Position numbers and translations under genes: made by a program. From assembly GCA_965277255.1 (NCBI GenBank), contig CBDICL010000005.1:28963-92962 (forward strand): a DNA stretch of 64,000 nucleotides, read 5' to 3'. Source of the DNA: Flavobacteriaceae bacterium (GTDB lineage Bacteria > Bacteroidota > Bacteroidia > Flavobacteriales > Flavobacteriaceae). Position 1 is the stretch's first letter. Each line of letters begins with the position of its first letter. Shown here in pieces: positions 21,832 through 37,519 of this stretch. The notes under the pieces were generated by a model. That model saw nothing but the letters and a program-made list of their open reading frames with translations, made no database searches and had not been told where the DNA came from.

Positions 21832-21878
21832 TGTGACGTTAGCCCCCTATTATATAACCTTAACAGGCTATTGTCGCA
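21832..21878. promoter_or_regulatory. Dyad (operator-like) site, copy 1
   Basis: TGTGACGTTAGC-N23-GCTATTGTCGCA; the same half-sites recur at 25083..25120 and 28112..28158. Confidence 0.7.
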
Positions 21879-22036
21879 TTACGCTGAAACTGTTGTTAGA
21901 TGTATAGATTTTTATGTTAGATATATAGAGGTTTTGTATTACACATAACTATTTGACAACCAGCGCTTTATATAAAACCCATTATTTTAACCCACCCCCC
22001 TAGCTATTGGTAACCAAGCACTTAGGTTTTTACCTT

Positions 22037-22067
22037 TTTGTTATGTGCAAATTGCACTATAATTTTG
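22037..22067 (+). promoter_or_regulatory. Bacteroidota sigma-A type promoter (-33/-7)
   Basis: TTTG (22037-40), 19-nt spacer, TAATTTTG (22060-67): exact match to TTTG-N19-21-TAnnTTTG at the head of the plus-strand arm. Confidence 0.6.
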
Positions 22068-22151
22068 AACTATTTCGTAGTAACCTCGCCCACACCCTGT
22101 TACCGTTTCGGGATTTAACCTCAGCACTTACTTCGAACCGATCTGTGTTTT

Positions 22152-22185
22152 TTACATACTAAACACGGTACCATCTGGATAATAT
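22152..22185 (+). repeat. 34-nt early-region element, copy 1
   Basis: TTACA TACT AAACACGG TACCATCT GGATAATAT. Confidence 0.8.
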
Positions 22186-22231
22186 AGTTAGGCTCCGACC
22201 TCAACCACACCCATCGACGGTAACATATTTT

Positions 22232-22265
22232 TTACAACCTTAACACGAACCTCTTTGGATAATAT
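22232..22265 (+). repeat. 34-nt early-region element, copy 2
   Basis: TTACA ACCT TAACACGA ACCTCTTT GGATAATAT; 27 nt upstream of ATG 22293. Confidence 0.85.
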
Positions 22266-22292
22266 AAGTGTAACAAATAAAACAAATACACA

Positions 22293-22454
22293 ATGTACAA
22301 AGTAATTAAAGAATCAAATTGGACAGACTCAAAAGGTAAAGTAAGAAACTTCTACAGTTTTGTAAGAGCAAATAGCATTGAAGAAGCTACAAAGTACAGT
22401 GCTCAAAAATGGGGATTAGATAATATAAAAGAAGTAATTGAATTTACAAACTAA
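22293..22454 (+). CDS. 53-aa early protein
   Basis: MYKVIKESNWTDSKGKVRNFYSFVRANSIEEATKYSAQKWGLDNIKEVIEFTN; stop lies inside element copy 3. Confidence 0.7.
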   Translation: MYKVIKESNWTDSKGKVRNFYSFVRANSIEEATKYSAQKWGLDNIKEVIEFTN

Positions 22455-22477
22455 ACACGAACCTCAACGGATAATAT
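22444..22477 (+). repeat. 34-nt early-region element, copy 3
   Basis: TTACA AACT AAACACGA ACCTCAAC GGATAATAT. Confidence 0.85.
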
Positions 22478-22500
22478 AAATGTAACTAAATATAACAAAC

Positions 22501-22605
22501 ATGAACACACTAACTAAAGTTGAACTATACATATTAGAAGATGCAATTATGGATTATTACTATTCCAGAGATAAGAATCCAAAACACTTAGAGTTACAAA
22601 GCTAA
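22501..22605 (+). CDS. 34-aa early protein
   Basis: MNTLTKVELYILEDAIMDYYYSRDKNPKHLELQS; directly downstream of element copy 3. Confidence 0.55.
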   Translation: MNTLTKVELYILEDAIMDYYYSRDKNPKHLELQS

Positions 22606-22710
22606 AATAACAAATATGATTAATAATATTAAGTAAAATAAGTTAAAACACACACATTCACACACTACAACACTCTCACTAAAAATATTAACAAATAAAC
22701 AACAACCATT

Positions 22711-22806
22711 ATGAGTAATGAATTAAGATTAAAAATAGAAAAGCAAAATGACAAGAACAGAAAGAGATTTTTCCTTCTATGGTCTTGGTATGAAACGAGT
22801 TACTAG
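22711..22806 (+). CDS. 31-aa early peptide (overlaps an alternative 46-aa ORF at 22748..22888)
   Basis: MSNELRLKIEKQNDKNRKRFFLLWSWYETSY with AAACAAC leader; which frame is real is uncertain. Confidence 0.4.
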   Translation: MSNELRLKIEKQNDKNRKRFFLLWSWYETSY

Positions 22807-22876
22807 AGTTACATTCTCACGAGGTCCTAGATGGAACAACATCAACTCAACTAAGATTTACTATGCACACACTAAA

Positions 22877-22910
22877 CTACAAGCTTAATACGACTTTAAA
22901 TGGATAATAT
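22877..22910 (+). repeat. 34-nt early-region element, copy 4
   Basis: CTACA AGCT TAATACGA CTTTAAAT GGATAATAT. Confidence 0.85.
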
Positions 22911-22929
22911 AAATGTAAAACAAACAACT

Positions 22930-23106
22930 ATGAAATACAACACTGCATTACACAACTACTTCAACCAACATAAAAACCTCGGCAAGTTATTCAATGAGAT
23001 GGATGCTATAGATATTGAAATTGATCCACTACATAATAAAAAACTATACTTACAAAGTCTAGGTTTCAGTCAAGAAAAAATAAACCAACTATTAAAAATA
23101 AAATAA
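22930..23106 (+). CDS. 58-aa early protein
   Basis: Likely start MKYNTAL at 22930; the track ATG at 22900 lies inside the repeat element. Confidence 0.7.
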   Translation: MKYNTALHNYFNQHKNLGKLFNEMDAIDIEIDPLHNKKLYLQSLGFSQEKINQLLKIK

Positions 23107-23107
23107 T

Positions 23108-23287
23108 ATGTCACAACTAACAAGACTACACGAGCTGAATGGTAAACTAGATATGCTACAAGATCTTAAAATATCTGGTCTAGGTTTATCACTTGACCAA
23201 CAACAAAAGTTGCTATACACACACCAACAAGTTCTTGACCAACGTTTCGAATTACTAAAACAAATTAAAAAAGAATATATACTATGA
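23108..23287 (+). CDS. 59-aa early protein
   Basis: MSQLTRLHELNGKLDMLQDLK...KKEYIL; ATGA-coupled to the next ORF. Confidence 0.65.
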   Translation: MSQLTRLHELNGKLDMLQDLKISGLGLSLDQQQKLLYTHQQVLDQRFELLKQIKKEYIL

Positions 23288-23436
23288 AAAAACCAAACCA
23301 ACTAATTGCACACGAAATATTTGAAGACAACCTTGAAGATTTCAAACAAAACAAAAGCTATAATGAGTTAGATAAACCAAACCAAATTGTGGTCTGTAGA
23401 ATTGTAAACAACTTAATAAGACAAGAATACTACTAA
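23284..23436 (+). CDS. 50-aa early protein
   Basis: MKKPNQLIAHEIFEDNLEDF...LIRQEYY. Confidence 0.65.
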   Translation: MKKPNQLIAHEIFEDNLEDFKQNKSYNELDKPNQIVVCRIVNNLIRQEYY

Positions 23437-23437
23437 T

Positions 23438-23551
23438 ATGATAATAATAAACAAATACACAGGACGTGACGTCTCAAGAGAATTCCTAGCCTTAATGGAA
23501 GGTATAATAACAAACGAAGAATTTGAACTAATAACATTAACACTAAAATAA
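23438..23551 (+). CDS. 37-aa early peptide
   Basis: MIIINKYTGRDVSREFLALMEGIITNEEFELITLTLK. Confidence 0.6.
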   Translation: MIIINKYTGRDVSREFLALMEGIITNEEFELITLTLK

Positions 23552-23556
23552 ACAAC

Positions 23557-23886
23557 ATGAGCTATACAAATTACAAAATAGATGAACTAGCACAAGATTT
23601 TTCTGAGGATGCATGGAATGCATTTCACAATGCAGAAATAAACGACCAAGATGATCTATATGATTATAGACACCAATGGATTGACGACAAAGTAATATAC
23701 ACACACGATTGCAAAAGATATATTGACGATTTAAACTATGATATATTTGAAGATCATGATTTATTTGGCCGTGCAGAAAACTGGTCGCAAGCAGCATATA
23801 ATGCTATCTACGACGCTCTAGATGAGTCCGATGACACTGTCTCTTGGTATGATATGGAACAGGTATTACAAGAAGCCACAAACTAA
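23557..23886 (+). CDS. Ocr (T7 gp0.3)-like acidic DNA-mimic, putative anti-restriction protein
   Basis: About 28 D/E versus 6 K/R in 109 aa; EINDQDDLYDYRHQWIDDKV...FEDHDL...AIYDAL aligns with Ocr [20 protein letters not shown]...FEDSGL...RIYEQL (Ocr sequence recalled). Confidence 0.65.
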   Translation: MSYTNYKIDELAQDFSEDAWNAFHNAEINDQDDLYDYRHQWIDDKVIYTHDCKRYIDDLNYDIFEDHDLFGRAENWSQAAYNAIYDALDESDDTVSWYDMEQVLQEATN

Positions 23887-23892
23887 ATAACA

Positions 23893-24018
23893 ATGGAAGA
23901 AATAACATTTGAACCAATTTACTGTAACTCTTGCAACAATACAGATCTTACATACAACCAAAGTATTATGGATTCATATTGTGCAAACTGTGGCGAATGG
24001 CAAGGCGGTGAATATTAA
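23893..24018 (+). CDS. 41-aa zinc-ribbon peptide
   Basis: CNSC...CANCGEW. Confidence 0.7.
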   Translation: MEEITFEPIYCNSCNNTDLTYNQSIMDSYCANCGEWQGGEY

Positions 24019-24023
24019 TACAA

Positions 24024-24057
24024 TTACAAACTAAATACGAACAACAATGGATAATAT
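24024..24057 (+). repeat. 34-nt early-region element, copy 5
   Basis: TTACA AACT AAATACGA ACAACAAT GGATAATAT. Confidence 0.85.
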
Positions 24058-24110
24058 ATACGAATCAGAAATAACAGAATATACTTATAACTTAATATGC
24101 TATACACACA

Positions 24111-24311
24111 ATGACTAACACATGGATATTTTATGGTAAAGACCATAGCGGAATTAAAACAATACACCACATTAAACAATGTAAACGCCCTGAAGCAACA
24201 AGCGAATACAAAGAAATGATGCACTTACTAGAAAATAATACTTATTACACAACAGGATATATGACTAGTAAAGCATGGAATAAAAATAACCAATATATAA
24301 AAGTAATATGA
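24111..24311 (+). CDS. 66-aa early protein
   Basis: ORF track; downstream of element copy 5. Confidence 0.65.
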   Translation: MTNTWIFYGKDHSGIKTIHHIKQCKRPEATSEYKEMMHLLENNTYYTTGYMTSKAWNKNNQYIKVI

Positions 24312-24645
24312 ACAAATTATAATTTACTACAGGTGTAGAAACAAGTAGCGGAAAAATCAATACTTGCTTAACGAATATCAGATCTCTGATAAATTTGGAA
24401 ACTACTGGATAAGTAATAAACCTTGTAAAAATTACAACTTAGATCATATATAAAAATTCACTAATGTATTGACAAAACAATACACTGGCAACTTACAGAT
24501 AATAATGATGATATGCTAATAACCCTGATTTATGAATTAGAATTAAAAATTAAACAACAAATATTATTTACATAAACCATTGAACAACTAACAAAAATTT
24601 AAAATTCGACTATTAGAATAAATTTGCATATCTACACACAAACAA

Positions 24646-24881
24646 ATGAAATCTATGTAGTATTACACGATCCATTAAATGAACTGGGAAAATAATGTAT
24701 TCTATTAAGACCAGACTTTGATATTCTAATAGAAACTATATCAGAATTAGATGAAGATGCTATTGTATACTGCTCAGATGTAGATGAATTCTTTCCTGAG
24801 TATGAAGTTGAAAACTTTATTGAATGCAATGATGAAGAATACAAAGTTGATAATGGAGTAATTAATTATTTTACAAAGTAA
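24646..24881 (+). pseudogene. Interrupted acidic ORF (start out of frame by one base; in-frame TAA at 24693)
   Basis: One frame reads IYVVLHDPLNELGK*CILLRPDFDILIETISELDEDAIVYCSDVDEFFPEYEVENFIECNDEEYKVDNGVINYFTK*; stop lies inside element copy 6. Confidence 0.45.
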
Positions 24882-24904
24882 ACACGAAGCATAACGGATA
24901 ATAT
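24871..24904 (+). repeat. 34-nt early-region element, copy 6
   Basis: TTACA AAGT AAACACGA AGCATAAC GGATAATAT. Confidence 0.85.
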
Positions 24905-24935
24905 TAACAAATAACAAACACAATTATATAAACAC

Positions 24936-25082
24936 ATGACACTACACGACGTATACATACTAGATAAAATAAATGAAAACAAAATGCATACAATGCATGA
25001 GAAAGCTTATATCGCTAAAAATAAATATCGAATAAAGTTACCAACTGAAACATTAAATGACTACTTTTACAATAACAAATAA
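24936..25082 (+). CDS. 48-aa early protein
   Basis: MTLHDVYILDKINENKMHTMHEKAY...YFYNNK. Confidence 0.6.
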   Translation: MTLHDVYILDKINENKMHTMHEKAYIAKNKYRIKLPTETLNDYFYNNK

Positions 25083-25120
25083 TACGACAATAGCAATTTA
25101 AATAACAGGCTAACGTCACA
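25083..25120. promoter_or_regulatory. Dyad (operator-like) site, copy 2
   Basis: TACGACAATAGC-N14-GCTAACGTCACA; intergenic; orientation inverted relative to copy 1. Confidence 0.7.
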
Positions 25121-25132
25121 AAACAAACAACA

Positions 25133-25282
25133 ATGGGTAAATTAATTATAACATATAAAGGTGAACAACTAGAATACTTAATCAATACAAAAGTAGCTGA
25201 CCACATATCTATGAAAGCTATTGAACACATATTAAAAGAATTCCCACCTGAGGCACCCGTTGATTTTATAGAACTATATTAA
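25133..25282 (+). CDS. 49-aa protein
   Basis: MGKLIITYKGEQLEYLINTKVADHISMKAIEHILKEFPPEAPVDFIELY. Confidence 0.65.
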   Translation: MGKLIITYKGEQLEYLINTKVADHISMKAIEHILKEFPPEAPVDFIELY

Positions 25283-25287
25283 ATATT

Positions 25288-25434
25288 ATGGCAGGAAATA
25301 AACACAACACACAATTTGCTATACACAAACCTAATACATATCAGTTAGTGTATAAAGATTTATACAACGAAAAATGTATAATGACTGGAACACCAAAACA
25401 AATTATAAACTACATACTTAACCAGCAACTATAA
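25288..25434 (+). CDS. 48-aa protein
   Basis: MAGNKHNTQFAIHKPNTYQLVYKDLYNEKC...ILNQQL. Confidence 0.6.
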   Translation: MAGNKHNTQFAIHKPNTYQLVYKDLYNEKCIMTGTPKQIINYILNQQL

Positions 25435-25439
25435 CATAT

Positions 25440-25602
25440 ATGATGGTCCTCTACCCCGTTGGCTTCGGCGAGGATAAGGATTAGCTACCTGAAGAACCCG
25501 CACAAGGGACACCATCATTATAATATTAAAAGCTACAGAGGATTACCGACGGGTAAATATAATCTCGAGATGAAGTAAGGGTAATGTTCCTTCTCCTCTG
25601 TA
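25440..25602 (+). ncRNA. Candidate structured RNA (two tandem multi-stem domains); strand uncertain
   Basis: GC-rich intergenic island. Closing stems ATGATGGT/ACCATCAT (25440-47/25511-18) and TACAGAGGA/TCCTCTGTA (25534-42/25594-602); inner hairpins TTACC-GACG-GGTAA, AAGGG-TAATGT-TCCTT, C-UUCG-G. Confidence 0.5.
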
Positions 25603-25637
25603 CCATATTAAATAATAACTTTAAAACAACAATTAAA

Positions 25638-26210
25638 ATGAAAAAAACTATCTTAACATTAATTACAATTGCAAGTGTATCTTGCACAGTAGACTTTGAC
25701 GATATGAATTTTTATATCGATGAGCTTAAAATGATTGAACAAATAAATTTAAATGAAGCCACACAAACACAAACGCAATCAACAACATTAACTACAACTG
25801 TATCTAATACATTATATAATAATATACAAAGTAAATTAGATTGGGTTGCTTATTTTAACACTTGGTCTGTTAGAGATCATCAATGGCTTCAATACATAGA
25901 GGCTCAAGAACCGGGTTTTACAATGTTATTTAACTTTGAAAACAATCAAATAAACATACCTAATATGCCTACTTGGAGTTATCCTTTAGATGGTCAATAC
26001 AAAATTGAAAATCAAAATAATATTATTGTGGCCTTAATTAAAGATGAATCTAAACGTATTGCAGATATACCTGAAAATTCAACACATATAAGATTTGTAT
26101 ATAGATATTCAAGTGATGAAACATTATATACACCTTATGTTGAAATTAAAGAATTATATAATAAATTCTTTGTAAACTATCAAGGAGAAATAACATATTC
26201 AAACAATTAA
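25638..26210 (+). CDS. Predicted lipoprotein
   Basis: Likely start MKKTILTLITIASVSC: signal peptide with lipobox Cys, followed by a T/Q-rich linker. Confidence 0.7.
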   Translation: MKKTILTLITIASVSCTVDFDDMNFYIDELKMIEQINLNEATQTQTQSTTLTTTVSNTLYNNIQSKLDWVAYFNTWSVRDHQWLQYIEAQEPGFTMLFNFENNQINIPNMPTWSYPLDGQYKIENQNNIIVALIKDESKRIADIPENSTHIRFVYRYSSDETLYTPYVEIKELYNKFFVNYQGEITYSNN

Positions 26211-26214
26211 TATT

Positions 26215-26379
26215 ATGTCAAAACAATATAAAAAGAAAAAAGAATTAATAATAACTGATCCTACAAAATTCCCTGATGACTTTTGGAACTACTGGGTAAA
26301 CCCTATTGTTGGTTATTATATACCACAAAAAAGATCACAAACAAGAAAAGAATCAAGAAAAAAACAATTACAATCTTAA
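26215..26379 (+). CDS. 54-aa protein
   Basis: MSKQYKKKKELIITDPTKFPDDFWNYWVNPIVGYY...KQLQS; stop lies inside element copy 7. Confidence 0.65.
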   Translation: MSKQYKKKKELIITDPTKFPDDFWNYWVNPIVGYYIPQKRSQTRKESRKKQLQS

Positions 26380-26401
26380 CACGAACATTAACAGATAATT
26401 A
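26368..26401 (+). repeat. 34-nt early-region element, copy 7
   Basis: TTACA ATCT TAACACGA ACATTAAC AGATAATTA. Confidence 0.75.
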
Positions 26402-26419
26402 ATTAAACAAACAAACATT

Positions 26420-26632
26420 ATGAGAAACGTAAAAAAAGAAACAATTAAAGTAAAGTCAGAAGCTATTAAAAAAGCTAAATACCATTACAGAAAAAAAATA
26501 CTTTCTGTTAAATTTCACAACGGCGATATATATTACTATCCTGAAATTGAACCATTTATATTTGAAGGTTTAAAAGCATCTGATTCAGTAGGTAAATTTT
26601 TAAACAAATATATTATTCATGCAAAAAATTAA
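26420..26632 (+). CDS. KTSC-domain protein
   Basis: VKSEAIKKAKY...LSVKFHNGDIYYY...LKASDSVGKFLNKYI. Confidence 0.75.
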   Translation: MRNVKKETIKVKSEAIKKAKYHYRKKILSVKFHNGDIYYYPEIEPFIFEGLKASDSVGKFLNKYIIHAKN

Positions 26633-26834
26633 AGAAGAAGCATTAAACAAAATGCATGCAAAACTAATTAATCAAACCAGAAAAGTAAGAGAAGCTGAAG
26701 AGTTTAAAGGTTTTTGGTGGGATGATAGTGCAGATGAAATTGAATCGTCTAAACAAATGTTATTAGATGATGCTATTAAAAATCAAGAAGTATACGAATA
26801 CATATATAAATTAATAAAGAATGACATTAACTGA
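26619..26834 (+). CDS. Hypothetical protein
   Basis: 71 aa, overlapping operon gene. Confidence 0.7.
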   Translation: MQKIKEEALNKMHAKLINQTRKVREAEEFKGFWWDDSADEIESSKQMLLDDAIKNQEVYEYIYKLIKNDIN

Positions 26835-27108
26835 TGGAGACATTGAGCGTATTGCTCAACTAATATTTGAAAAGCTTCTTGAAAAACAAAAAAGCTTTGA
26901 AGAAGAAACTGAACAAGTATATCATATATATGATGAATTAGGTAAAGTTGAAATAGTAAGCGAACAAGAATTTTATGAATATGAATTAGACAGACTAATT
27001 GATTTAGAAAGAAAATATGTAGAAAATGAAGAATTTGAAAAAGCTAATATTATTAAAAATAAAATACGTAAAGTCAAATTGAAAATTAAAAAACAAAATG
27101 GAATCTAA
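26821..27108 (+). CDS. Hypothetical protein with UVR (UvrB/C)-like C-terminal motif
   Basis: YVENEEFEKANIIKNKI. Confidence 0.6.
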   Translation: MTLTDGDIERIAQLIFEKLLEKQKSFEEETEQVYHIYDELGKVEIVSEQEFYEYELDRLIDLERKYVENEEFEKANIIKNKIRKVKLKIKKQNGI

Positions 27109-27301
27109 AAAAATAAAAACAAGATTAATAACTTTAGGCACACCAGATAATTATAACACTATGAATTACAGAGTGTTATGGAAACACAAAGACGGAATTT
27201 ATGCAAATTATAAAGACTTCTCAAATATAAATGAAGCAAAAAAATACGAACAAGAAATACCTAACAATTTAAAATTAAACACATGGATGGACAAACGATA
27301 A
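27098..27301 (+). CDS. Hypothetical protein
   Basis: 67 aa, operon context. Confidence 0.65.
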   Translation: MESKKIKTRLITLGTPDNYNTMNYRVLWKHKDGIYANYKDFSNINEAKKYEQEIPNNLKLNTWMDKR

Positions 27302-27681
27302 CACCAACAATATCTTTAGCAGCTTTAAAACATTTAGTTGAAAAAGAATTAAACATTAAAGACTTAAGCAATAAATGCAGATCAAGAGAATTAGCTCAAG
27401 CAAGATTTGTTTATTTTAAATTAAGCCGTAAATTCTGCCCACTTAGAAGCTTAACAGCTATAGGTAGAGAAGTTAAAAGAGATCATGCTACAGTTATTAA
27501 TGGATTAAAAAAATGGGATGTAGAAATTATATATGACCCATATATGGAGATGGTATATGATAAGATTAGTTCTATATTAACTAATTCATCTATAACAGTT
27601 AGTTCTGGAGAAAACGCAATGACGTTTCAAATATTGGAAGAAAGAATATCTAAACTAGAAGAAAAATTATGCTTCGTTTAA
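27283..27681 (+). CDS. Stand-alone DnaA C-terminal (domain IV) DNA-binding protein
   Basis: RSRELAQARFVYFKLSRK...SLTAIGREVKRDHATVINGLKK matches the DnaA-IV signature (SL..IG..F.RDHTTV). Confidence 0.75.
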   Translation: MDGQTITPTISLAALKHLVEKELNIKDLSNKCRSRELAQARFVYFKLSRKFCPLRSLTAIGREVKRDHATVINGLKKWDVEIIYDPYMEMVYDKISSILTNSSITVSSGENAMTFQILEERISKLEEKLCFV

Positions 27682-28037
27682 TTATGCTATACACACTTGT
27701 TGTATTTATTAATACTGAACAGCAAGTTACAGCTACAATATATCACGCTGTTGAAGGACAAACTGATTCAACACCAGATACGACTGCAAGTATGTTTAAA
27801 ATTGATTTAAACAACCCTAGAGGGCATAATATAATAGCTGTATCAAGAGATCTTGAAAGCTTAGGGTTTACTTTAGGTAGTAAAGTTAAAGTAACAGGAG
27901 CAGGTGATCTTGATGGTATATGGAACATAGAAGATAGAATGAATAAACGTTTTACTAAACGCATTGATTTTCTAGTAAATACAACACGTAAGGGTGGTAA
28001 ATGGGAAAATGTAAAAATTACAAAATGGGAAGAGTAA
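27669..28037 (+). CDS. 3D-domain (MltA-like) peptidoglycan-acting protein
   Basis: VTATIY...QTDSTP..TAS...IIAVSRDL...GSKVKV...IEDRMNKRF..RIDFLV; hydrophobic N-terminus. Confidence 0.75.
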   Translation: MLRLIMLYTLVVFINTEQQVTATIYHAVEGQTDSTPDTTASMFKIDLNNPRGHNIIAVSRDLESLGFTLGSKVKVTGAGDLDGIWNIEDRMNKRFTKRIDFLVNTTRKGGKWENVKITKWEE

Positions 28038-28111
28038 AAGAATTGCTTATGCAATTAAATCAACAGCAATTAAATGATTTAGAAATAACATACGAAGTAA
28101 TTTATCCAGAG

Positions 28112-28158
28112 TATGACGATAGATCGTTATAATATTATAGTAATAAGCTAATGTCGCA
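28112..28158. promoter_or_regulatory. Dyad (operator-like) site, copy 3, overlapping the start codon of the HTH gene
   Basis: TATGACGATAGA-N23-GCTAATGTCGCA; ATG 28151 lies in the right half-site. Confidence 0.65.
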
Positions 28159-28765
28159 TAGAAATACAAAATATCTTGACAATAAAAGAATAGTGTACAG
28201 GAGAAATCCTATAACAGATATACCAACTATATCTTTTGATTGGGGTAATTTTTATGAAGAAGGCACTTATGAATGTTATGAGTTATTTAGAAGCAAAGCC
28301 AAAATAACAACTTATAAGTCACTTAAATGGCATGTCTTAGTATTATGGTATTTAAATCCTCAATTAAATAAAGAGGAATTTGAAGATATAATTTATTTTA
28401 TAACAGATAAGGAAAATGGATTTGTTACATTTTTTACTCCTGAAAAAGTTATAAGGGAAATTATTACCCACGTAATGCTGCATGATTTAGAGGAACCACC
28501 AAAAAATAAACTCAGAAAAATAATCTTTAAAGACAACTCAGGATTACTTATATCCGAAAAGATGTCAATAGTAGGTAAATTGATTGGAAAAATAAAAAAA
28601 GCCGATCATAGTGATATTTACGAAACAATGTTGTACCTTCATGACGGTAATGAAAGGATTACAATAAAAAAGATCGCAAATATATTAGATGTATCTACTA
28701 GAACAATATATCGAAACATGAACGATAAATTGAATAAAGAAAAAGAATTATTAAATGAGTTATGA
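28151..28765 (+). CDS. C-terminal HTH DNA-binding protein (regulator or replication-initiator-like)
   Basis: ITIKKIANILDVSTRTIYRNM helix-turn-helix. Confidence 0.75.
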   Translation: MSHRNTKYLDNKRIVYRRNPITDIPTISFDWGNFYEEGTYECYELFRSKAKITTYKSLKWHVLVLWYLNPQLNKEEFEDIIYFITDKENGFVTFFTPEKVIREIITHVMLHDLEEPPKNKLRKIIFKDNSGLLISEKMSIVGKLIGKIKKADHSDIYETMLYLHDGNERITIKKIANILDVSTRTIYRNMNDKLNKEKELLNEL

Positions 28766-29526
28766 AAAAATATAATATACAGAACTATGTAAGATATAAG
28801 GAAGATGTATTAAATTCAATAAGGTTAATAGAAAATAAACAATTGAATGAATATACTAGAGATGAGCTTATAATAACATTTTTGCCATTAGTTGAGAATA
28901 TTGCAAGAAAATTTGCTACTTCACAACAAGCTTCAGGCGTTATGGATATTACTGATTTAATTCAAGAAGGTTCAAAAGGTTTAATAAATGCTGCTGATAA
29001 AATAATATGGGAAACCATTACAGAATCAACGGACCCAGAGAAAACTATTAAATCATTTTTATCAAAAAGAATTAAAGGTGCAATTAGAAGAGCTATAGAT
29101 ATAAATAGAGGAGATATAAGAATACCGGAACATAAGTTAAATGAAATAAGAAAAGATAACGGTAAGAATGAAAAAATGGTTTCAATGTTTTTTAATTCTA
29201 TTTTTTTAAGTATTGAAGAACAAGCTAGTTCATTAGATGATGAAAATATGGTTTATCAAATACCAGATCAAGCTGAACCGTATAATATTAATTTAATGAA
29301 TAAATATTTAGAAGGCTTACTGAAAAAACATTTAAATAAAAAAGAGTTTGAAGTATTAAGATTATCTTACGGATTAGATTGCGATAAACATTCAGCTAAT
29401 GAAATTGCTGAAATATTAAACATTGATGGCCCTAGTGCATACGTAAGAATATCAGAGTTAAAAAAGCAAGCAATAAATAAATTAATAGAAAATGTAGATG
29501 CAGGCCAAGTGCTTGATTTCCTGTAG
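28762..29526 (+). CDS. Phage-encoded sigma-70 family RNA polymerase sigma factor
   Basis: Region 2 FLPLVENIARKF...DLIQEGSKGL; region 3 IRIPEHKL; region 4 LNKKEFEVLRLSYGL...EIAEIL...RISELKKQAINKL. Confidence 0.9.
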   Translation: MKKYNIQNYVRYKEDVLNSIRLIENKQLNEYTRDELIITFLPLVENIARKFATSQQASGVMDITDLIQEGSKGLINAADKIIWETITESTDPEKTIKSFLSKRIKGAIRRAIDINRGDIRIPEHKLNEIRKDNGKNEKMVSMFFNSIFLSIEEQASSLDDENMVYQIPDQAEPYNINLMNKYLEGLLKKHLNKKEFEVLRLSYGLDCDKHSANEIAEILNIDGPSAYVRISELKKQAINKLIENVDAGQVLDFL

Positions 29527-29579
29527 GTTACATAGTAATAAACAAGTAAATTTTAACCTTAACATGTAATATATATATT

Positions 29580-30140
29580 ATGAGTATTAAACAAAAACTA
29601 AGTTCAATTCAACAAGATTTTAAAGCAAAAAAATCTCGTTACAACTCATTCGGTAAGTACAACTTTAGATCTGCCGAGGACATTCTGGAAGCATTAAAAC
29701 CTATGAATAAAAAGCATGGAGTTTATTTTACGATTAGCGAAGAGCTAATTGCAAGTGATCCTATGCCTATTATTAAAAGTACGGCTAAAATAGTTGATGC
29801 TAAAGATGGTGATTCTATTCAAGCTGAAGCAATTGTTGGTGTAGATTTAAATCAAAAAGGTATGCAAGTACCTCAACAGTTTGGTTCTGCGTCTAGTTAT
29901 GCTAAAAAATATTCATTAGGTAATTTATTACTTATTGATGATACGGCTGATTCTGATGCAACAAATACTGGAGGCAACCAACCTAAAAGTAATTTAGTTA
30001 GAAATACGGCTAAACCTGAAATTAATATGGATAACATTGAACAAGCTAAGAAATTTTTAGCAAGTGGAGGTTCTATAGAAACATTGCATGAAAAATACAC
30101 TATTAGCCCAACTATGTTGAAAATATTAAAAAATGGATAA
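29580..30140 (+). CDS. ERF-family ssDNA annealing protein
   Basis: YNSFGKYNFRSAEDILEALKP...QQFGSASSYAKKYSLGNLLLIDD..DSD. Confidence 0.88.
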   Translation: MSIKQKLSSIQQDFKAKKSRYNSFGKYNFRSAEDILEALKPMNKKHGVYFTISEELIASDPMPIIKSTAKIVDAKDGDSIQAEAIVGVDLNQKGMQVPQQFGSASSYAKKYSLGNLLLIDDTADSDATNTGGNQPKSNLVRNTAKPEINMDNIEQAKKFLASGGSIETLHEKYTISPTMLKILKNG

Positions 30141-30864
30141 AAATAAAATTTTAAAAAAATTACAAGAAGATGAGCATTACTATGGAGAATTTGGTAGGCA
30201 ATATTTAAGTAATTCTGATATAATGGCATTACTTAATAATCCTTTGGATTTTAAAAAGCCATCACAAGCATCCTCAGCTTTTTTAATTGGAGGATATTTT
30301 CACACTTGTATATTAGAACCAGATAAATTAAAAAAATATAAAGTTGTTCAATCATCAAATAGAAATACTAAAGTATATAAAGAAATATCTGAAGGAGAAT
30401 TATGTTTGTTACAACATGAAGTAGATATGGTTGAAATGCTTAGAGATAAAATGTTTGATAATCAAATTTGTAAAGACTTTATACAAAATCCAAATAATGA
30501 TTATGAAGTACCAGGTATTGTTGAATTACAAGGCAATATGTGGAAAGGTAAAGCTGATATTATTAATCATGATGAAAAGTTAATTATAGATTTAAAAACT
30601 ACAAATGATATATCAAAATTTAAATGGAGTGCATCTAAATATAATTATGATAGTCAGGCTTACATTTATAGAAAAATGTTTGGATATGATTTTTTATTTA
30701 TAGTTGTAGATAAAAATACACAACAAATTGGTATCTTTGATTGTTCAGACAGATTTTACGAATCAGGAGCTGATAAAGTAGTGAGAGCTACAGAGGCTTA
30801 TGAATTATTTTATAAAACCGAAGGATTTGACCCTTCACAATATTTTTTAACTAAAACCCTTTAA
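30133..30864 (+). CDS. PD-(D/E)XK exonuclease (RecE/ExoVIII-like)
   Basis: YLSNSDI...GGYFHTCILEP...KGKADI...IIDLKTT...Y..QAYIY. Confidence 0.85.
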   Translation: MDKNKILKKLQEDEHYYGEFGRQYLSNSDIMALLNNPLDFKKPSQASSAFLIGGYFHTCILEPDKLKKYKVVQSSNRNTKVYKEISEGELCLLQHEVDMVEMLRDKMFDNQICKDFIQNPNNDYEVPGIVELQGNMWKGKADIINHDEKLIIDLKTTNDISKFKWSASKYNYDSQAYIYRKMFGYDFLFIVVDKNTQQIGIFDCSDRFYESGADKVVRATEAYELFYKTEGFDPSQYFLTKTL

Positions 30865-30866
30865 CA

Positions 30867-31187
30867 ATGGCAGGAATATTAAAAGGAAGCATTAACTTAA
30901 GTGCAATTCCAAAAGACAAGATTATCGCAGGTAAGAAAGGACAATACCTTCCGGTAACAATTACTTTTAACGATGAAATAGATCAATTTGGCAATCAAGG
31001 CCCTATTATCGTTGAACAAACTAAAGAAGAAAGAGATGCTAAAGCACCTAAAACTTACTTAGGAAACATTAAAATTGTTTGGACTAATGGTCAAGTTGAA
31101 GCGGCACCTAGACAAGATCAAGGTATGCAACAACAAATTAACGCAGCTGTACCACAACCACCATCAACACCAGATTTACCATTTTAA
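30867..31187 (+). CDS. Probable single-stranded DNA-binding protein
   Basis: OB-like KKGQYL.VTI...YLGN core, Q/P-rich linker and C-terminal DLPF tail; lies between exonuclease and primase. Confidence 0.65.
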   Translation: MAGILKGSINLSAIPKDKIIAGKKGQYLPVTITFNDEIDQFGNQGPIIVEQTKEERDAKAPKTYLGNIKIVWTNGQVEAAPRQDQGMQQQINAAVPQPPSTPDLPF

Positions 31188-31197
31188 ATTAAATTAA

Positions 31198-32907
31198 ATG
31201 AACACAACGGAGATCAATGGATTTTTGATTGATAAATTCAATCAACATGATCTACCAGAAGGCAAAACGCAGGGGATTTGTCCCCTGTGTTCTTTTGATA
31301 GAAAACCTGAACACAAGAAGGCAAAATGTGCTTCTTATGATTGGGAACGTGGTCTTGGTACTTGTCATAATTGCAACAAAACATTTCAACTACATTCATA
31401 TCAGCGTAAAGGCTCATCTGAAAAAATATATATTCGTCCAACAACGCCTATAATATTACCAGATATAAGCACTAACGTTGAAAAATGGTTTGAAGGTAGA
31501 GGTATATCTAAAGATACTCTTAAAGAACTTAAAGTTACTGAAGGATCTGAATTTATGCCACAAACCGGAAAATCTGAAAATGCTATTCACTTTAATTATT
31601 TTATAGGAGACCAATTAATAAACGTCAAATATAGAGACGGCCGCAAAAACTTTAAATTATATAAAGGAGCGGAAAAAGTATTTTACAACATAAATAGTGT
31701 TGTTGGATATGAGTATTGTGTTATAGTAGAAGGTGAGATGGATGTGCTAAGTCTGCATGAAGCGGGAGTATCAAACGCCATATCAGTACCAAATGGGGCT
31801 ACATTAACATCTAACAATTTAGATTATCTTGACAATTGTATTGAATATTTAATTGACAAAGAGAAAATAATTATAGCTGTAGACAATGATGACGCAGGGC
31901 AAGCGTTACAACAAGAGCTTGTTAGAAGATTAGGAGCTGAGGTATGTTATATATCTACATTTGAAGATTGTAAAGATGCAAATGAATATTTATTAAAGTA
32001 TGGAAAAGAAAAATTGGTTCAGCGTATTACCGCAGCAAAGCCCGTTCCCCTCGAAAACGTTACCACGTTTAGAGATATTGAAGCGGAAATTACTGACTTT
32101 GTTGAAAATGGCTTTAAGCCCGGTTTCCAAATTGGATTACCTAATTTCGATAGCATTTTCAGCACTTACACTGGTCAGTTTATTACTGTTACTGGTATTC
32201 CTTCTAGTGGGAAGTCCGATTTTGTTGATCAAATGGTTATTGGATATAACATAAATTATCAATGGAAAACAGCTTTTGCTTCTCCTGAAAATGCACCAAC
32301 ATATTTGCATGCTCATAAATTAATGAGAAAAGTGTGGCAAGACATGCCATCTAAAAAGGATATTGGTACAGATAAATGGAATCAAGTAGCAGAACATATT
32401 AATGATAATTTTTTTTTTATTGATATGGATAAATACAGTTTAGAGGCTGTATTACGTAAAGGTGCTGAGTTGGTAAAGCGCAAAGGAATTAAATGTTTAG
32501 TTATAGACCCTTTTAATAAAGTAAGATCAAATGATGCTTCTGGTGATGTTAATGTATATACTCTTGACTACTTATCTAAAATAGAGATATTCGCAAAAAA
32601 ATATGACGTTTTAGTTATTGTGGTTGCACACCCTACTAAAATGTATAAAGATGCTAATGGGCGGATTGAAGAGCCCACAATGTATAATATTAAAGGTGGA
32701 GGTGAATGGTATGATGCCAGCTACCATGGCATATTAGTTCACAGAGACTATGAGCAAAGAACTGTTAAAGCTAAAATATTGAAAGTCAAATTTCAAAACC
32801 TTGGCGAAAATGGTGCTGAAGCTCATTTTAAATGGGAACCAAAATCAGGTTGCTTTATACCACACGAGCCTTTAGATTTAACTGAGGAAAAAATGCCTTG
32901 GGAATAA
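31198..32907 (+). CDS. Bifunctional primase-helicase (T7 gp4/Twinkle-like)
   Basis: Zn finger CPLC/CHNC; Toprim VEGEMD and DNDDAG; Walker A GIPSSGKS; VIDPFN; VVAHP. Confidence 0.93.
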   Translation: MNTTEINGFLIDKFNQHDLPEGKTQGICPLCSFDRKPEHKKAKCASYDWERGLGTCHNCNKTFQLHSYQRKGSSEKIYIRPTTPIILPDISTNVEKWFEGRGISKDTLKELKVTEGSEFMPQTGKSENAIHFNYFIGDQLINVKYRDGRKNFKLYKGAEKVFYNINSVVGYEYCVIVEGEMDVLSLHEAGVSNAISVPNGATLTSNNLDYLDNCIEYLIDKEKIIIAVDNDDAGQALQQELVRRLGAEVCYISTFEDCKDANEYLLKYGKEKLVQRITAAKPVPLENVTTFRDIEAEITDFVENGFKPGFQIGLPNFDSIFSTYTGQFITVTGIPSSGKSDFVDQMVIGYNINYQWKTAFASPENAPTYLHAHKLMRKVWQDMPSKKDIGTDKWNQVAEHINDNFFFIDMDKYSLEAVLRKGAELVKRKGIKCLVIDPFNKVRSNDASGDVNVYTLDYLSKIEIFAKKYDVLVIVVAHPTKMYKDANGRIEEPTMYNIKGGGEWYDASYHGILVHRDYEQRTVKAKILKVKFQNLGENGAEAHFKWEPKSGCFIPHEPLDLTEEKMPWE

Positions 32908-33165
32908 ATGGCTAAAAAAAAAGAAACAATTTGGATGCCAGAATATATGACTTCTAAGAATGAAAATGAATGGTATGCTTGGGGAGTTAACAATAATATT
33001 AGAATTTCACCTAAGCCAGCGACTCAGGGCCCAAACCCTAAAGAATGGTATTTAGAGGTTTTTAATAATGGTAGATGGTATAAGTCTCCTAATGTTTATG
33101 GACCAAAAGAAATATGGTATGAATTTTATTTAATGTATAAATTTTATTATGATAAATATAGATGA
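32908..33165 (+). CDS. Hypothetical protein
   Basis: 85 aa, aromatic-rich. Confidence 0.7.
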   Translation: MAKKKETIWMPEYMTSKNENEWYAWGVNNNIRISPKPATQGPNPKEWYLEVFNNGRWYKSPNVYGPKEIWYEFYLMYKFYYDKYR

Positions 33166-33976
33166 AGAATATAGAGGATTACTCTCTGGAGTATTTCACG
33201 CAGGCAAAGACAAAGAAGACCGCACAGGTACTGGCACAAGATCAGTATTTGGTAGAACTATAAGACATGATATGCGTGCGGGTTTTCCATTATTAACAAC
33301 TAAAAAAATATATTTTAAAAATGCAGTTACGGAATTATTATGGATCTTACAAGGTCGCACAGATATGCAATATTTGCATAATCACAATCTCACTTATTGG
33401 GATGCAGACTATACCAGAAGCGGTAGAACTGACGGAACACTTGGTAAAGTTTACGGTTATCAGTGGAGAAATAGTAATGGCGTTGATCAGCTTTATAATT
33501 TACTTCAAGAAATCACATCTAACCCGTCTTCAAGAAGACTTATGGTTAATTCGTGGAACCCTGGTGACCTCAATGATATGGCACTCCCTCCTTGTCATTA
33601 CAGCTTTCAAGTTTATATAAATGATGGTAAACTAGATTTAATGTGGCAACAAAGATCAGTAGACATATTTTTAGGCTTACCTTACGATATAGCTATGTAT
33701 GGATTATTATTATTGATGCTAGCTAAAGGGTTTAACTACGAGCCTGGAACTTTAATTGGTCAATTAGGTGATTGTCATTTATATAATAATCATTTAGATC
33801 AAGCGAGCTTGCAATTAGCAAGAGAACCTAAAAAACTCCCAACAGTAGATGTTGACTTTGGCTTAAAATTAGTTAAAGGTGCAGGAGATTTTGTTTTTAT
33901 ACCAACACATAATATGATTAAATTAAATAACTATGAATCACACAAAGCAATCAAAGCCCCACTCTCAGTCGGATGA
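33149..33976 (+). CDS. thyA: Thymidylate synthase
   Basis: DRTGTGT, FPLLTTKK, ELLW, SRRL, MALPPCH, QRSVDIFLGLPYDI, GDCHLYNNH. Confidence 0.97.
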   Translation: MINIDEEYRGLLSGVFHAGKDKEDRTGTGTRSVFGRTIRHDMRAGFPLLTTKKIYFKNAVTELLWILQGRTDMQYLHNHNLTYWDADYTRSGRTDGTLGKVYGYQWRNSNGVDQLYNLLQEITSNPSSRRLMVNSWNPGDLNDMALPPCHYSFQVYINDGKLDLMWQQRSVDIFLGLPYDIAMYGLLLLMLAKGFNYEPGTLIGQLGDCHLYNNHLDQASLQLAREPKKLPTVDVDFGLKLVKGAGDFVFIPTHNMIKLNNYESHKAIKAPLSVG

Positions 33977-34061
33977 CATTTGGTTTAAAAAAACCAATTA
34001 TCCAGGAGAATGGCTAAGTAAAAAAAGCAAAGATATAATTAACCAAATAAACCAGAAAAAC

Positions 34062-34484
34062 ATGAAAAATTTATTATTTACATTATTATTATTATTTCCT
34101 TTAATGTCCTTTGGGCAATTAGATCATAAAAGAGCCTTAACATTTCAAAACGATATTAGGTCTTTTCATGATTTAAATAAATTAAAATACGATAATTCAT
34201 TAGCAGAATCCGCTAAAGTATGGGCAATATATTTAGCTGAAACAAATAAATTTGAATTTAGCGATGATGATAAAGGAGAATTAATTTATTATTATAAAAA
34301 AAGAGAAAATATAAAAATTGAAGATTACTTATTAGATGCATCTATAGGTTGGGCAATAAGATATAATGAGGAAGAAACATTCAAACAAATAATTTGTGAA
34401 GATTGTGAGTACATTGGATTTGGTATTGCAGAGAATATTGACTATATTTACGTAGTCGCTAGATACAATAAACTTTATAATTAA
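34062..34484 (+). CDS. Secreted CAP/SCP-like domain protein
   Basis: Likely start MKNLLFTLLLLFPLMSFG (signal peptide); QNDIRSFH..LKYDNSLAESAKVWA..LA...IGFGIA...VVARY. Confidence 0.65.
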   Translation: MKNLLFTLLLLFPLMSFGQLDHKRALTFQNDIRSFHDLNKLKYDNSLAESAKVWAIYLAETNKFEFSDDDKGELIYYYKKRENIKIEDYLLDASIGWAIRYNEEETFKQIICEDCEYIGFGIAENIDYIYVVARYNKLYN

Positions 34485-34485
34485 T

Positions 34486-35238
34486 ATGTATTATATTTAT
34501 CACATATTCGGTAAAAAAATAGGAGTCGCACGTAATTTAAAAAGTAGAGTTACGCTTGCGCAGGGCTATAAGCCTAATGAATATGAAGTTCTTGATTCTT
34601 CTGATGATATAGATTATATATCTCACAAGGAAATAGAACTTCAAAAGTCTTATGGCTATAGAGTAGATAGAAAATTATATAAAAATTTATTTAAGAAAAT
34701 GAAAATTAATGCTACAGAACAAACGTCAACTTTTCCATACTCTATCGTAGAGTTAAAAGCTAATTTAGATAGTGATATTGGATTTAAATGGGAAACATCA
34801 TTAGGTGAATTTGAATTAACAAAAGAATCTGTTAATTGGATAAAAGCTAATGCTAAAAAATCAATGTATAATGATAACCGTACGTACATTTATAATAAAG
34901 CTTTTTATGAAGCTTTTTTGGCAGAACCACTATATGACAAAGAAAACATATTTGGACTCATTAGAGGGTGGGCACAAGAACGTGGTTTATATGATAAGGG
35001 AGATTTTAAAACTCAATATATAAAACTTATGGAAGAGTCAGGTGAATTAGCTCAAGCTATATTAAAAAATGACGAACCAGAAGTTATTGATGCTATAGGA
35101 GATATGGTTGTTGTATTAACTAATTTAGCTAAGTTACGAGGACACAATATTGAAGATTGTATTCAGTCTGCTTATGACGAAATATCTAATCGTAAAGGCA
35201 AGATGGTTAATGGTACATTTGTAAAAAATACGCTATGA
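34486..35238 (+). CDS. MazG-like nucleotide pyrophosphohydrolase with N-terminal extension
   Basis: C-terminal KLMEESGELAQA...DAIGDMVVVL.NLA...CIQSAYDEISNRKG; N-terminal YYIYHI..KIG pattern. Confidence 0.85.
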   Translation: MYYIYHIFGKKIGVARNLKSRVTLAQGYKPNEYEVLDSSDDIDYISHKEIELQKSYGYRVDRKLYKNLFKKMKINATEQTSTFPYSIVELKANLDSDIGFKWETSLGEFELTKESVNWIKANAKKSMYNDNRTYIYNKAFYEAFLAEPLYDKENIFGLIRGWAQERGLYDKGDFKTQYIKLMEESGELAQAILKNDEPEVIDAIGDMVVVLTNLAKLRGHNIEDCIQSAYDEISNRKGKMVNGTFVKNTL

Positions 35239-35465
35239 GAGATAAAGTAATACAAGATGTAGTTGAAAAGTTTCAACAACGCTCAGATGTTGGTTATAAA
35301 AAATATGGTGTTACTCTTCATGATGATGAACCTAATTTGCATAAATGGCTTAATCATTTGCAAGAAGAATTAATGGATGCAGTTAATTATATTCAGAAGC
35401 TCAAGATGGAATCTACTACAGCTTTAGAAGAGAAGCTATTAAAAGACTTTGAAGAAGATGCTTAA
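35235..35465 (+). CDS. Small all-alpha NTP-PPase-like protein
   Basis: GYKKYGVTL...WLNHLQEELMDAVNY (EExxD motif). Confidence 0.55.
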   Translation: MRDKVIQDVVEKFQQRSDVGYKKYGVTLHDDEPNLHKWLNHLQEELMDAVNYIQKLKMESTTALEEKLLKDFEEDA

Positions 35466-35916
35466 TAGAAATAGAAAAGGAAGAAGAAAAAGGGGTCCTG
35501 TTAGAGCTAAAAAAGTTAGCTTTGACGGGATTGACTTTGCTTCAGGCTTAGAAAAGTATATGTATATTGCTTTAAAAAAAGCAAAGATTAAAAATAAATA
35601 TGAAGGTGAAACGTTTGTTTTAATTAATGGATTTCATTTTGAAAATGAATCTTATGAAAGACAAGCTAATGGCAAAGGGGAATTAATTAATAGAGGTAGT
35701 AAAAGAATATTACCTATTAAGTATACACCTGATTTTATTGGTGAAGATTTTATAATAGAAACAAAAGGTAGAGCTAATGAATCTTTCCCAATTAGGTGGA
35801 AACTGTTTAAAAAATTAGTTACTGAGCAATTTCCACAGTATACTTTATATAAACCACAAAATCAAAAAGAATGCGACAGAGTAGTAGAAATAATCCTGAG
35901 CAAGAAAAAAAAGTAG
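35449..35916 (+). CDS. T7 endonuclease I-like Holliday junction resolvase
   Basis: FASGLE...KYEG...YTPDF...IIETKG. Confidence 0.85.
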   Translation: MKKMLNRNRKGRRKRGPVRAKKVSFDGIDFASGLEKYMYIALKKAKIKNKYEGETFVLINGFHFENESYERQANGKGELINRGSKRILPIKYTPDFIGEDFIIETKGRANESFPIRWKLFKKLVTEQFPQYTLYKPQNQKECDRVVEIILSKKKK

Positions 35917-36044
35917 CTCGGCTTAGATATGCTGAAAGGCAGATTGAAAAATGGATTAAGTGGTCTATCCAAAATAGAGGATATGTAAAATACAAAGAAA
36001 TAGTTGAAATACATGATAAATATAATATAAAATGCTATGGCTAA
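35871..36044 (+). CDS. 57-aa protein
   Basis: MRQSS...YAERQIEKWIKWSIQNRGYVKYKEIVEIHDKYNIKCYG. Confidence 0.5.
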   Translation: MRQSSRNNPEQEKKVARLRYAERQIEKWIKWSIQNRGYVKYKEIVEIHDKYNIKCYG

Positions 36045-36171
36045 AGTAATATCAAATAATTATAAAGGTAATCCAAAAGTTAAAAGACCAGGAGTACATG
36101 CTAAATCTAAAACCTCTAACTTAAAAACAAGTAAAAATTATACTAAACAATATAAAGGACAAGGAAGATGA
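36037..36171 (+). CDS. 44-aa basic peptide
   Basis: MAKVISNNYKGNPKVKRPGVHAKSK...YKGQGR. Confidence 0.65.
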   Translation: MAKVISNNYKGNPKVKRPGVHAKSKTSNLKTSKNYTKQYKGQGR

Positions 36172-36308
36172 CAGGCTGGGAAATTAGTGTTGGATTATAT
36201 CCTGGTGTTTTATTAGGAATTAGAAGCTATGTAGAAAACGGATCAACAGACCATGTTTTATATATACCTTTTGTAGAATTATGTTTAACTATATATTATG
36301 AAAATTAA
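36168..36308 (+). CDS. 46-aa hydrophobic peptide
   Basis: MTGWEISVGLYPGVLLGIRSY...LCLTIYYEN; coupled to nrdB by TAATG. Confidence 0.6.
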   Translation: MTGWEISVGLYPGVLLGIRSYVENGSTDHVLYIPFVELCLTIYYEN

Positions 36309-37276: not shown

Positions 37277-37291
37277 ATTAAATAAAATAAA

Positions 37292-37519
37292 ATGAAAGAA
37301 CAAAAATTAGTAGAATTAGTTAATAAGGTAAATGGTTTAGAAAATATTGTTAAACAATTAATAACTGAATTATATAACTTAAAAGATTTAAGTGTAGGCA
37401 CACTAGAGGCGGTTAAATTAATGCCTGGTTATGACGATGCAATAATTGAATTAACAAAACAATTAGAAGAAGCAAATAAAAAACAACAAGAAAAAAAATT
37501 AGATTTAAATGTGGAATAA
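37292..37519 (+). CDS. Coiled-coil hypothetical protein
   Basis: 75 aa between nrdB and nrdA. Confidence 0.7.
   Translation: MKEQKLVELVNKVNGLENIVKQLITELYNLKDLSVGTLEAVKLMPGYDDAIIELTKQLEEANKKQQEKKLDLNVE

Follow-up and report, generated by a model that had tools for sequence, protein, structure and literature searches.

Here we describe a 47-bp element, a dyad of two inverted 12-bp arms around a 23-nt spacer. It is strongly conserved in uncultured phages of Flavobacteriia that make up a very large family. It came to light in a 64,000-nt stretch of a Flavobacteriaceae assembly that maps to contig C7 (C7:28963-92962; the window, in what follows), where one copy heads a leftward late arm (site 1) and another covers the start codon of a gene for a 204-aa helix-turn-helix (HTH) protein, coupled to the gene of a phage sigma-70-family factor (site 3). 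A third pair of arms, with a shorter spacer, is found in the early arm (site 2). We think it probable, on the comparisons set out below, that the arms are operators of the HTH protein flanking two phage-specific promoters, by means of which this protein would autoregulate the HTH-sigma operon and gate late transcription.

The sequence-only reading of this stretch had listed six half-sites, forming inverted pairs with spacers of 23, 14 and 23 nt, and direct reading agrees with it exactly in every position and spacer (Table 1). Allowing at most one mismatch to the consensus TRYGACRWTAGC (built from the same sites that it scores, the independent proof being 23 fresh loci described below), the window has eight matches versus 2.64 expected, a number reached in 0 of 100 shuffles, and six of the eight are the three inverted pairs. 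The tier with two mismatches is background (44 found versus 40). In the 4.48-Mb assembly, inverted pairs are confined to phage contigs C7 and C18, bar one weak chromosomal pair with three mismatches and a 30-nt spacer. Arm scans found no single arms upstream of other genes. The half-site spans 12 bp, or 18 bp if an inner TTA is included, and the arm centers are separated by 34 to 36 bp at the long-spacer sites and by 26 bp at site 2. A CRP/FNR-type site was discarded, as it would need TGTGA-N6-TCACA, and here the TGTGAC and GTCACA blocks are ~35 nt apart.

To follow the element beyond this assembly, we drew HTH and sigma relatives from IMG/VR, and the dyad was present at nearly every relative locus. 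It covers the HTH start codon in 85 distinct sequences (a class filtered so that the ATG lies inside the arm), with a spacer of 23 nt in 51 of them, 22 nt in 21 and 24 nt in 13, and a second copy was found in 58 relatives, 4.2 to 7.7 kb upstream. Loci seemingly without the dyad hold diverged versions of it. Arm positions G4, A5, C6, A10 and G11 are invariant, and the symmetry reaches inward, with TTA/TAA 4 to 6 nt inside each arm. The independent test set consisted of 23 loci binned in metagenome-assembled genomes and unused for any consensus: the dyad was at the HTH start in 23/23, with the ATG inside the arm in 22/23, while random segments pass a looser dyad threshold in 2.7% of cases. Complete dyad-bearing genomes contained exactly two long-spacer dyads each, and reversed-pattern controls gave none. 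Site and HTH gene are conserved together, and the overlap of the dyad with the start codon, noted at first for the window only (ATG 28151 inside the last arm), extends to the family.

The element is also directional. Of 34 upstream-class spacers, 29 match the HTH-start class only after reverse complementing, and the remaining 5 are misfiled HTH-start sites. The oriented consensus runs from a distal arm, wTGTGAC(A/G)ATAGs, through nnnTTAA, about 8 nt, (n)ATA(A/G)TA and nAG to a proximal arm, GCTA(A/T)(T/C)GTCACA. Site 1 points leftward, to the late arm, and site 3 rightward, to the HTH-sigma operon. Both have a sigma-70-type -35/spacer/-10 geometry on the strand facing the downstream genes, given by a consensus scan as GCGACA-17-TATAAT on the minus strand of site 1 and ATGACG-17-TATAGT on the plus strand of site 3. 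In the family profile of the spacer, where the -10-like hexamer takes up positions 13 to 18, T18 and A19 reach 2.0 bits each and A16 1.7 bits. The earlier pairing of the half-sites into three sites stands as far as their existence goes, but the 23-nt spacers are not neutral, and because they hold a directional promoter-like core, we read sites 1 and 3 as operator-flanked promoters pointing in opposite directions. Transcription is predicted to start in the first few bases of the proximal arm, 0 to 4 nt before the HTH AUG, so that the HTH mRNA would be leaderless or nearly so. At site 1, the proximal arm lies 78 nt ahead of the first late-arm open reading frame (ORF), over the predicted late start region.

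Bacteroidota hosts use unusual promoters. The host motif TAnnTTTG was found here in 511 of 2,201 upstream regions versus 140 inside genes, and a host-type promoter (TTG at -33, TAnnTTTG at -7) was ruled out for the dyads, the motif being absent from their cores. Because of this misfit, the cores were taken as phage specific, and the phage sigma would be their natural candidate reader. A scan for look-alikes of the site 1 core returned 14 matches versus 8.4 expected; among those on the late strand, no match checked was intergenic, and additional late promoters of this kind were rejected.

Inverted 12-mers, one of them with an AUG in the right arm of site 3, might instead pair in RNA, the hairpin being a terminator, a site of processing or a means of sequestering the start codon. 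This is contradicted by the covariation test, in which variable positions pair no more than shuffled controls and position 8 is systematically noncomplementary (one arm has A and the other T; 16% Watson-Crick). Besides, the "loop" would measure 22 to 24 nt and contain conserved positions, and no U-tract comes after it. We give RNA pairing practically no credence.

Site 2 departs from the other two. Both of its inner flanks are of the GCnnnTTA type, and it has no -10-like core, being without the 9 bp that bear the core in site 1. Its arms are the inverted site 1 arms in 23 of 24 bases. The 14-nt-spacer form is limited to close relatives (L010/L090, the second phage copy in C7, and C18). Site 2 is probably a recent, lineage-specific inverted copy of site 1, turned into an operator without a promoter, and might serve as a roadblock or decoy.

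Table 1. Positions of the dyads, their arms and cores, and the genes and genome arms around them, in window coordinates.
Feature	Position	Strand	Description
Site 1 left arm	21832-21843	+	TGTGACGTTAGC by direct reading; reads GCTAACGTCACA on the minus strand = proximal arm
Site 1 core	21844..21866	-	nnnTTAAGG then TTATATAATAG; -10-like TATAAT at 21854-21849
Site 1 distal arm	21867-21878	-	TGCGACAATAGC; about -35 to -24 of the predicted leftward late promoter
Site 2	25083..25120	+	Two arms, 14-nt spacer; between two small early ORFs
Site 2 arm	25083-25094	+	TACGACAATAGC by direct reading
Site 2 arm	25109-25120	-	TGTGACGTTAGC by direct reading
Site 3 distal arm	28112-28123	+	TATGACGATAGA by direct reading
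Site 3 core	28124..28146	+	-10-like TATAGT at 28136-28141, then invariant A
Site 3 proximal arm	28147-28158		TGCGACATTAGC on minus, GCTAATGTCGCA on plus strand; holds the HTH ATG, 28151-28153
204-aa HTH protein gene	28151..28765	+	N-terminal alpha/beta domain of unknown fold and C-terminal helical HTH; candidate arm binder
Sigma-70-family factor gene, 254 aa	28762..29526	+	Translationally coupled to the HTH gene
First late-arm ORF, 170 aa	21242..21754	-	No family match; variable among relatives
Leftward late arm, head part	1-21754	-	Tail fibres, GroEL
Rightward early arm	22007-39251	+	Many small ORFs, DnaA-C-like protein, 204-aa HTH protein, sigma-70-family factor, Erf, exonuclease, primase-helicase, ThyA, RNR
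Late-arm far end of neighbouring phage copy	39351-64000		

In the 204-aa protein, HTH_11, HTH_7 and HTH_23 match residues 157 to 192, all under the Pfam cut-offs; HTH_11 (PF08279) scores 23.6 bits for a gathering cut-off of 25, which leaves the protein outside that family by the Pfam rule. HTH_11 is matched by 36 of 47 members of the protein's own family (E <0.01), and R184, T185 and R188 are invariant in the HTH domain. A confident structural model was obtained with a predicted local distance difference test (pLDDT) of 88.4 and a predicted template modeling score (pTM) of 0.80. In a fold search of this model against the PDB nothing was better than E ~1, with one unnamed viral homologue, and a profile run on the sequences in the PDB matched nothing but SlmA-type HTHs, and these marginally. 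NCBIfam had no match, and no similarity to Cro or CI was detectable by profile or fold searches. The family is very large, with at least 8,000 candidates, almost all of them unnamed. The sigma factor is a family member by TIGR02937 (score of 56.1 for a cut-off of 42.9, residues 33 to 239), and also matches phrog_351 (1.9e-20) and SigA in the PDB (8e-9). Throughout the family the two genes are adjacent and usually overlap; in the window the HTH stop overlaps the sigma start by 4 nt. The search of a phage collection revealed no cultured relatives of either protein and no sequence relative of the phage sigma, and no cultured relative came up at the DNA level, although near-identical records may have been outside these searches.

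As to the link between arms and protein, one clade (L068, L096 and L100) retains the sigma factor, at 63 to 66% identity, and has no HTH gene. No HTH homologue was found anywhere in two near-complete genomes of this clade, G005 (100% complete) and G001 (97%), in searches where positive controls gave E ~1e-100. Arms were not above chance in the clade, and no relaxed dyads were detected. The late-arm head of the clade has retained the core TTATATAATA(G) and lost the GAC/GTC triplets: L100 has an 11-mer, TTATATAATAG, identical to window positions 21847-21857 despite decayed arms, G005 retains a 10-mer version of the core with part of the proximal arm deleted, and CTA/TAG are still present in the late-head arms. 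Site and regulator gene co-occur and vanish together, in one loss event. Within ±8 kb of the loci, with L068 and L100 as the dyad-less ones, only the HTH protein matches dyad presence, and genome-wide it is the only one of 78 window ORFs (those of at least 60 aa) found in 7/7 complete dyad-bearing genomes and 0/2 dyad-less ones. More distant phages of the same assembly (contigs C9, C10 and C21) have neither HTH nor sigma gene nor dyads. The near-universal start-codon dyad, its copy at the late head and this unique profile of the HTH protein lend support, by sequence comparison, to what had been suggested from the window, that is, an autoregulated DNA-binding protein whose sites would control another promoter as well.

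In the HTH-less clade (L100:6468-7916, L068:6959-7795), the place of the HTH gene directly upstream of sigma is taken by an ATP-dependent DNA ligase, and in L100 a pyrimidine-dimer-glycosylase-like gene lies between ligase and sigma. The divergent region of L100 (L100:2620-2945) contains five direct repeats of ~16 nt, ATGACATnnnG(A/T)CA(C/T)A. These may be sites of another regulator, or iterons, where the HTH-bearing phages have the dyad alone.

The same clade bears on the possibility that the phage sigma reads the arms directly, as promoter elements, with no part for the HTH protein, either as inward -35 elements of a bidirectional promoter or as outward single-element promoters. GTGACA and GCGACA do resemble a -35 hexamer and lie 17 nt from -10-like hexamers, on both strands at site 3; site 1 is located between divergent genes, a place that would suit two outward promoters; and TAATGT in the proximal arm coincides with tAATGTAtA, the gp36 element of phiEco32, at 6 of its 9 positions (PMC8948821). 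However, the HTH-less clade has lost the GAC/GTC arms genome-wide and kept the core, with the region 4.2 helix of its sigma essentially unchanged from that of the HTH-bearing phages, and because this recognition helix is unchanged where the arms are lost, they are unlikely to be its -35 element. A gp36-type single-element promoter was rejected on the same ground, the arms being absent from a clade that bears the sigma. Moreover, a transcript starting 6 to 8 bp past the arm would lack the conserved start codon of the HTH gene, nothing but antisense RNA would come from an outward promoter in the left arm of site 3, and the arms never stand singly upstream of other genes. Altogether, we regard this explanation as improbable.

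We return to the HTH protein as the candidate binder of the arms. Sites 1 and 3 would be two copies of one directional module of ~47 bp, in which the inverted 12-bp arms enclose an AT-rich stretch whose end is a -10-like nATA(A/G)T, with A as the next base; the distal arm would span about -35 to -24 and the proximal one about +1 to +12. The 204-aa protein would bind the half-sites, chiefly through the invariant GAC and TAG triplets, and the core would probably be read by the host RNA polymerase with the phage sigma. The site 1 promoter would head the ~45-kb late arm, leftward, and that of site 3 the protein's own operon, including the sigma, rightward. Given binding, repression or gating seems the somewhat better supported mode of action. 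We lean to it because an arm covers the start region, because the late core persists, presumably working, in phages that have lost the protein, and because site 2, an operator without a core, would make no sense other than as a roadblock or decoy.

Activation, in which the protein would be an adaptor for the -35 region, is the less favored, though still serious, mode under the same premise. As a complete explanation, it would have the distal arm replace -35 recognition, and the protein, together with the sigma, turn on the late arm and amplify its own operon. The distal arm falls exactly on the -35 region, the HTH and sigma genes stay together across the family, the cores are unlike host promoters, and a two-domain protein of ~200 aa recalls MotA. 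On the other hand, an equally conserved second arm over +1 to +12 would not be expected, the protein must be dispensable to phages that keep the late core without it, and site 2 has arms and no promoter core. We consider this activator rather unlikely.

Several observations weigh against an operator role for the arms, or against details of it. The HTH-less genomes form one clade and stand for a single evolutionary event, in which the loss of site 3 along with the gene is trivial, so that the informative part is the decay of the arms at site 1, several kilobases from the HTH locus. The genome-wide profile covered only window ORFs of at least 60 aa. Covariation of the arms between the two sites of a genome is weak and confounded by relatedness. 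The distance between arm centers is far for a simple HTH dimer, and the site 2 arms are 9 bp closer; a compact lambda-like operator, with half-sites about one helical turn apart, is not what was found at any of the sites. Such a wide and variable distance would require a flexible or multimeric binder, or else independent binding of each arm. The conservation of the core is moderate (A2 ~1.1 bits), and matches to a -10-type consensus are common in this AT-rich region (45 found versus 49 expected). Lastly, leaderless translation of the HTH mRNA is an assumption, and a lone promoter for a late arm of ~45 kb would be unusual.

The sequence-only reading had also considered that the dyads mark an origin, and they might in principle be a replication origin, a packaging site or another site of DNA transactions. 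The intergenic region around site 1 is divergent and AT-rich, and nearby genes encode a primase-helicase and a DnaA-domain-IV-like protein. The latter, of 132 aa (window 27283-27681, plus strand), is essentially a DnaA domain IV-like HTH (Bac_DnaA_C, 4.4e-12). However, the element is directional and always faces downstream genes, one copy in every case covers a start codon, each site is a single inverted pair with no iteron or other direct-repeat arrays, and primase-helicase, Erf and exonuclease are all kept in the dyad-less clade. The DnaA-C-like gene is patchy, with only 14 of 59 dyad-bearing loci encoding it, and was ruled out as the arm binder for this reason. The idea of an origin mark found no support, and we consider it very improbable.

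With regard to the phages themselves, the 4.48-Mb assembly comprises a Flavobacteriia-type chromosome of 3.9 Mb and many phage contigs. The target of the Cytophaga-Flavobacteria probe is present in the host 16S. Contig C7 consists of two related phage genomes of ~62 kb each, head to tail, whose early arms are ~97% identical and whose structural genes are ~70% identical; the pair is either a chimeric assembly or a real concatemer of co-infecting relatives. C18, C19 and C25 are additional variants, and C9, C10 and C21 are further removed. By GroEL, the closest named phages have Flavobacterium, Cellulophaga and Maribacter as hosts. Contigs of the family are phage-sized or short, and because no integration was seen among them, the phage looks lytic. 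The 170-aa ORF that opens the late arm was found in 6 of 59 relatives. In the late arm of the neighboring copy there is a 2025-aa ORF (window 40336-46413, minus strand), considered as a possible virion RNA polymerase, for which searches of PDB sequences and PHROG gave no match.

The early arm has sequence elements of its own. A repeat of ~40 nt, TTTACAAnCTnAACACGAAC-N7-GGATAATATAA, is present in seven copies (window 22148-26427, plus strand only), each ~25 to 30 nt before a small early ORF, and site 2 is downstream of six of the seven. These repeats were found on sigma-bearing phage contigs only, and host upstream regions show no enrichment of the motif. Their GATAATA fits the nATA(A/G)TA of the dyad core, and both classes might share one -10 recognition. 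The sole intergenic host-type match, TTG-N19-TATAATTTTG, is located at the head of the early arm (window 22038-22067, plus strand), where it overlaps the palindrome GTGCAAATTGCAC; it is not conserved, as the strict pattern was kept in 1 of 45 relatives versus 2 of 45 on the control strand.

To our knowledge, transcription control in Bacteroidota phages is almost unexplored, with few regulators or promoters defined. For an abundant phage family, the present comparison provides a cis element, sharply defined and near-universal, and one candidate factor to act on it in trans. The expected start of late transcription is set by the element, which also predicts a leaderless regulator mRNA; the HTH-less clade is a natural knockout, and the module could become a regulated promoter part for Flavobacteriia genetics. 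Tentatively, and with less confidence than in the operator role itself, we suggest that this may be an undescribed phage switch. An orphan-fold HTH protein would clamp the -35 and +1 flanks of just two phage-sigma-dependent promoters per genome, the only one of the ~45-kb late operon and that of its own leaderless mRNA, with the start codon in the operator, and, being made in a fixed ratio with the sigma, would time late transcription.

Among known systems, the region of phi29 that contains A2b, A2c and A3 is similar in having a small phage DNA-binding protein, p4, and long-spacer inverted repeats in a divergent early/late region, and p4 makes the early-to-late switch through promoters that it overlaps, as proposed here. 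Sequence and fold of p4 are unrelated, however, it works with the host sigma-A, as phi29 encodes no sigma, and its sites are upstream of or over -35 rather than bracketing -35 and +1, and not on its own start codon. Lambda Cro and CI are likewise HTH proteins with dyad operators over their own promoter and a second, divergent unit, combining autoregulation with a switch, but in lambda each operator is a compact dyad of 17 bp whose half-sites adjoin, whereas here a promoter core lies between the half-sites. T4 MotA, acting with AsiA, is a two-domain protein of ~200 aa, with a box near -30 that replaces the -35 element. MotA boxes, in contrast, are single and asymmetric, occur at tens of promoters and have no arm over the start site, and MotA has a double-wing domain instead of an HTH and needs AsiA and the host sigma-70. 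The arm sequences were not found in the literature searched.

As for the sigma, two lytic phages, phiEco32 (gp36/gp79) and Salmonella phage 7-11 (gp47), also have early and late arms that diverge. Their late promoters are read by the host core enzyme with a phage sigma-70-family factor, and in phiEco32 a second small phage protein, gp79, modulates the sigma by acting on RNA polymerase, not on DNA (PMC8948821, PMC12276001). Their promoters (tAATGTAtA and GTAAtg-N16-aCTA) number 6 to 8 per genome and have no flanking dyads (PMC8948821, PMC12276001), unlike the two sites per genome described here, each of them bracketed by inverted arms linked to a DNA-binding protein. By analogy, the module would work like the phi29 p4 or lambda Cro/CI regions with a sigma in the style of phiEco32 and 7-11 added, and we place it outside all of these systems because of its orphan protein fold, the arms bracketing the promoter at 34 to 36 bp, and a start codon that forms part of the putative operator.

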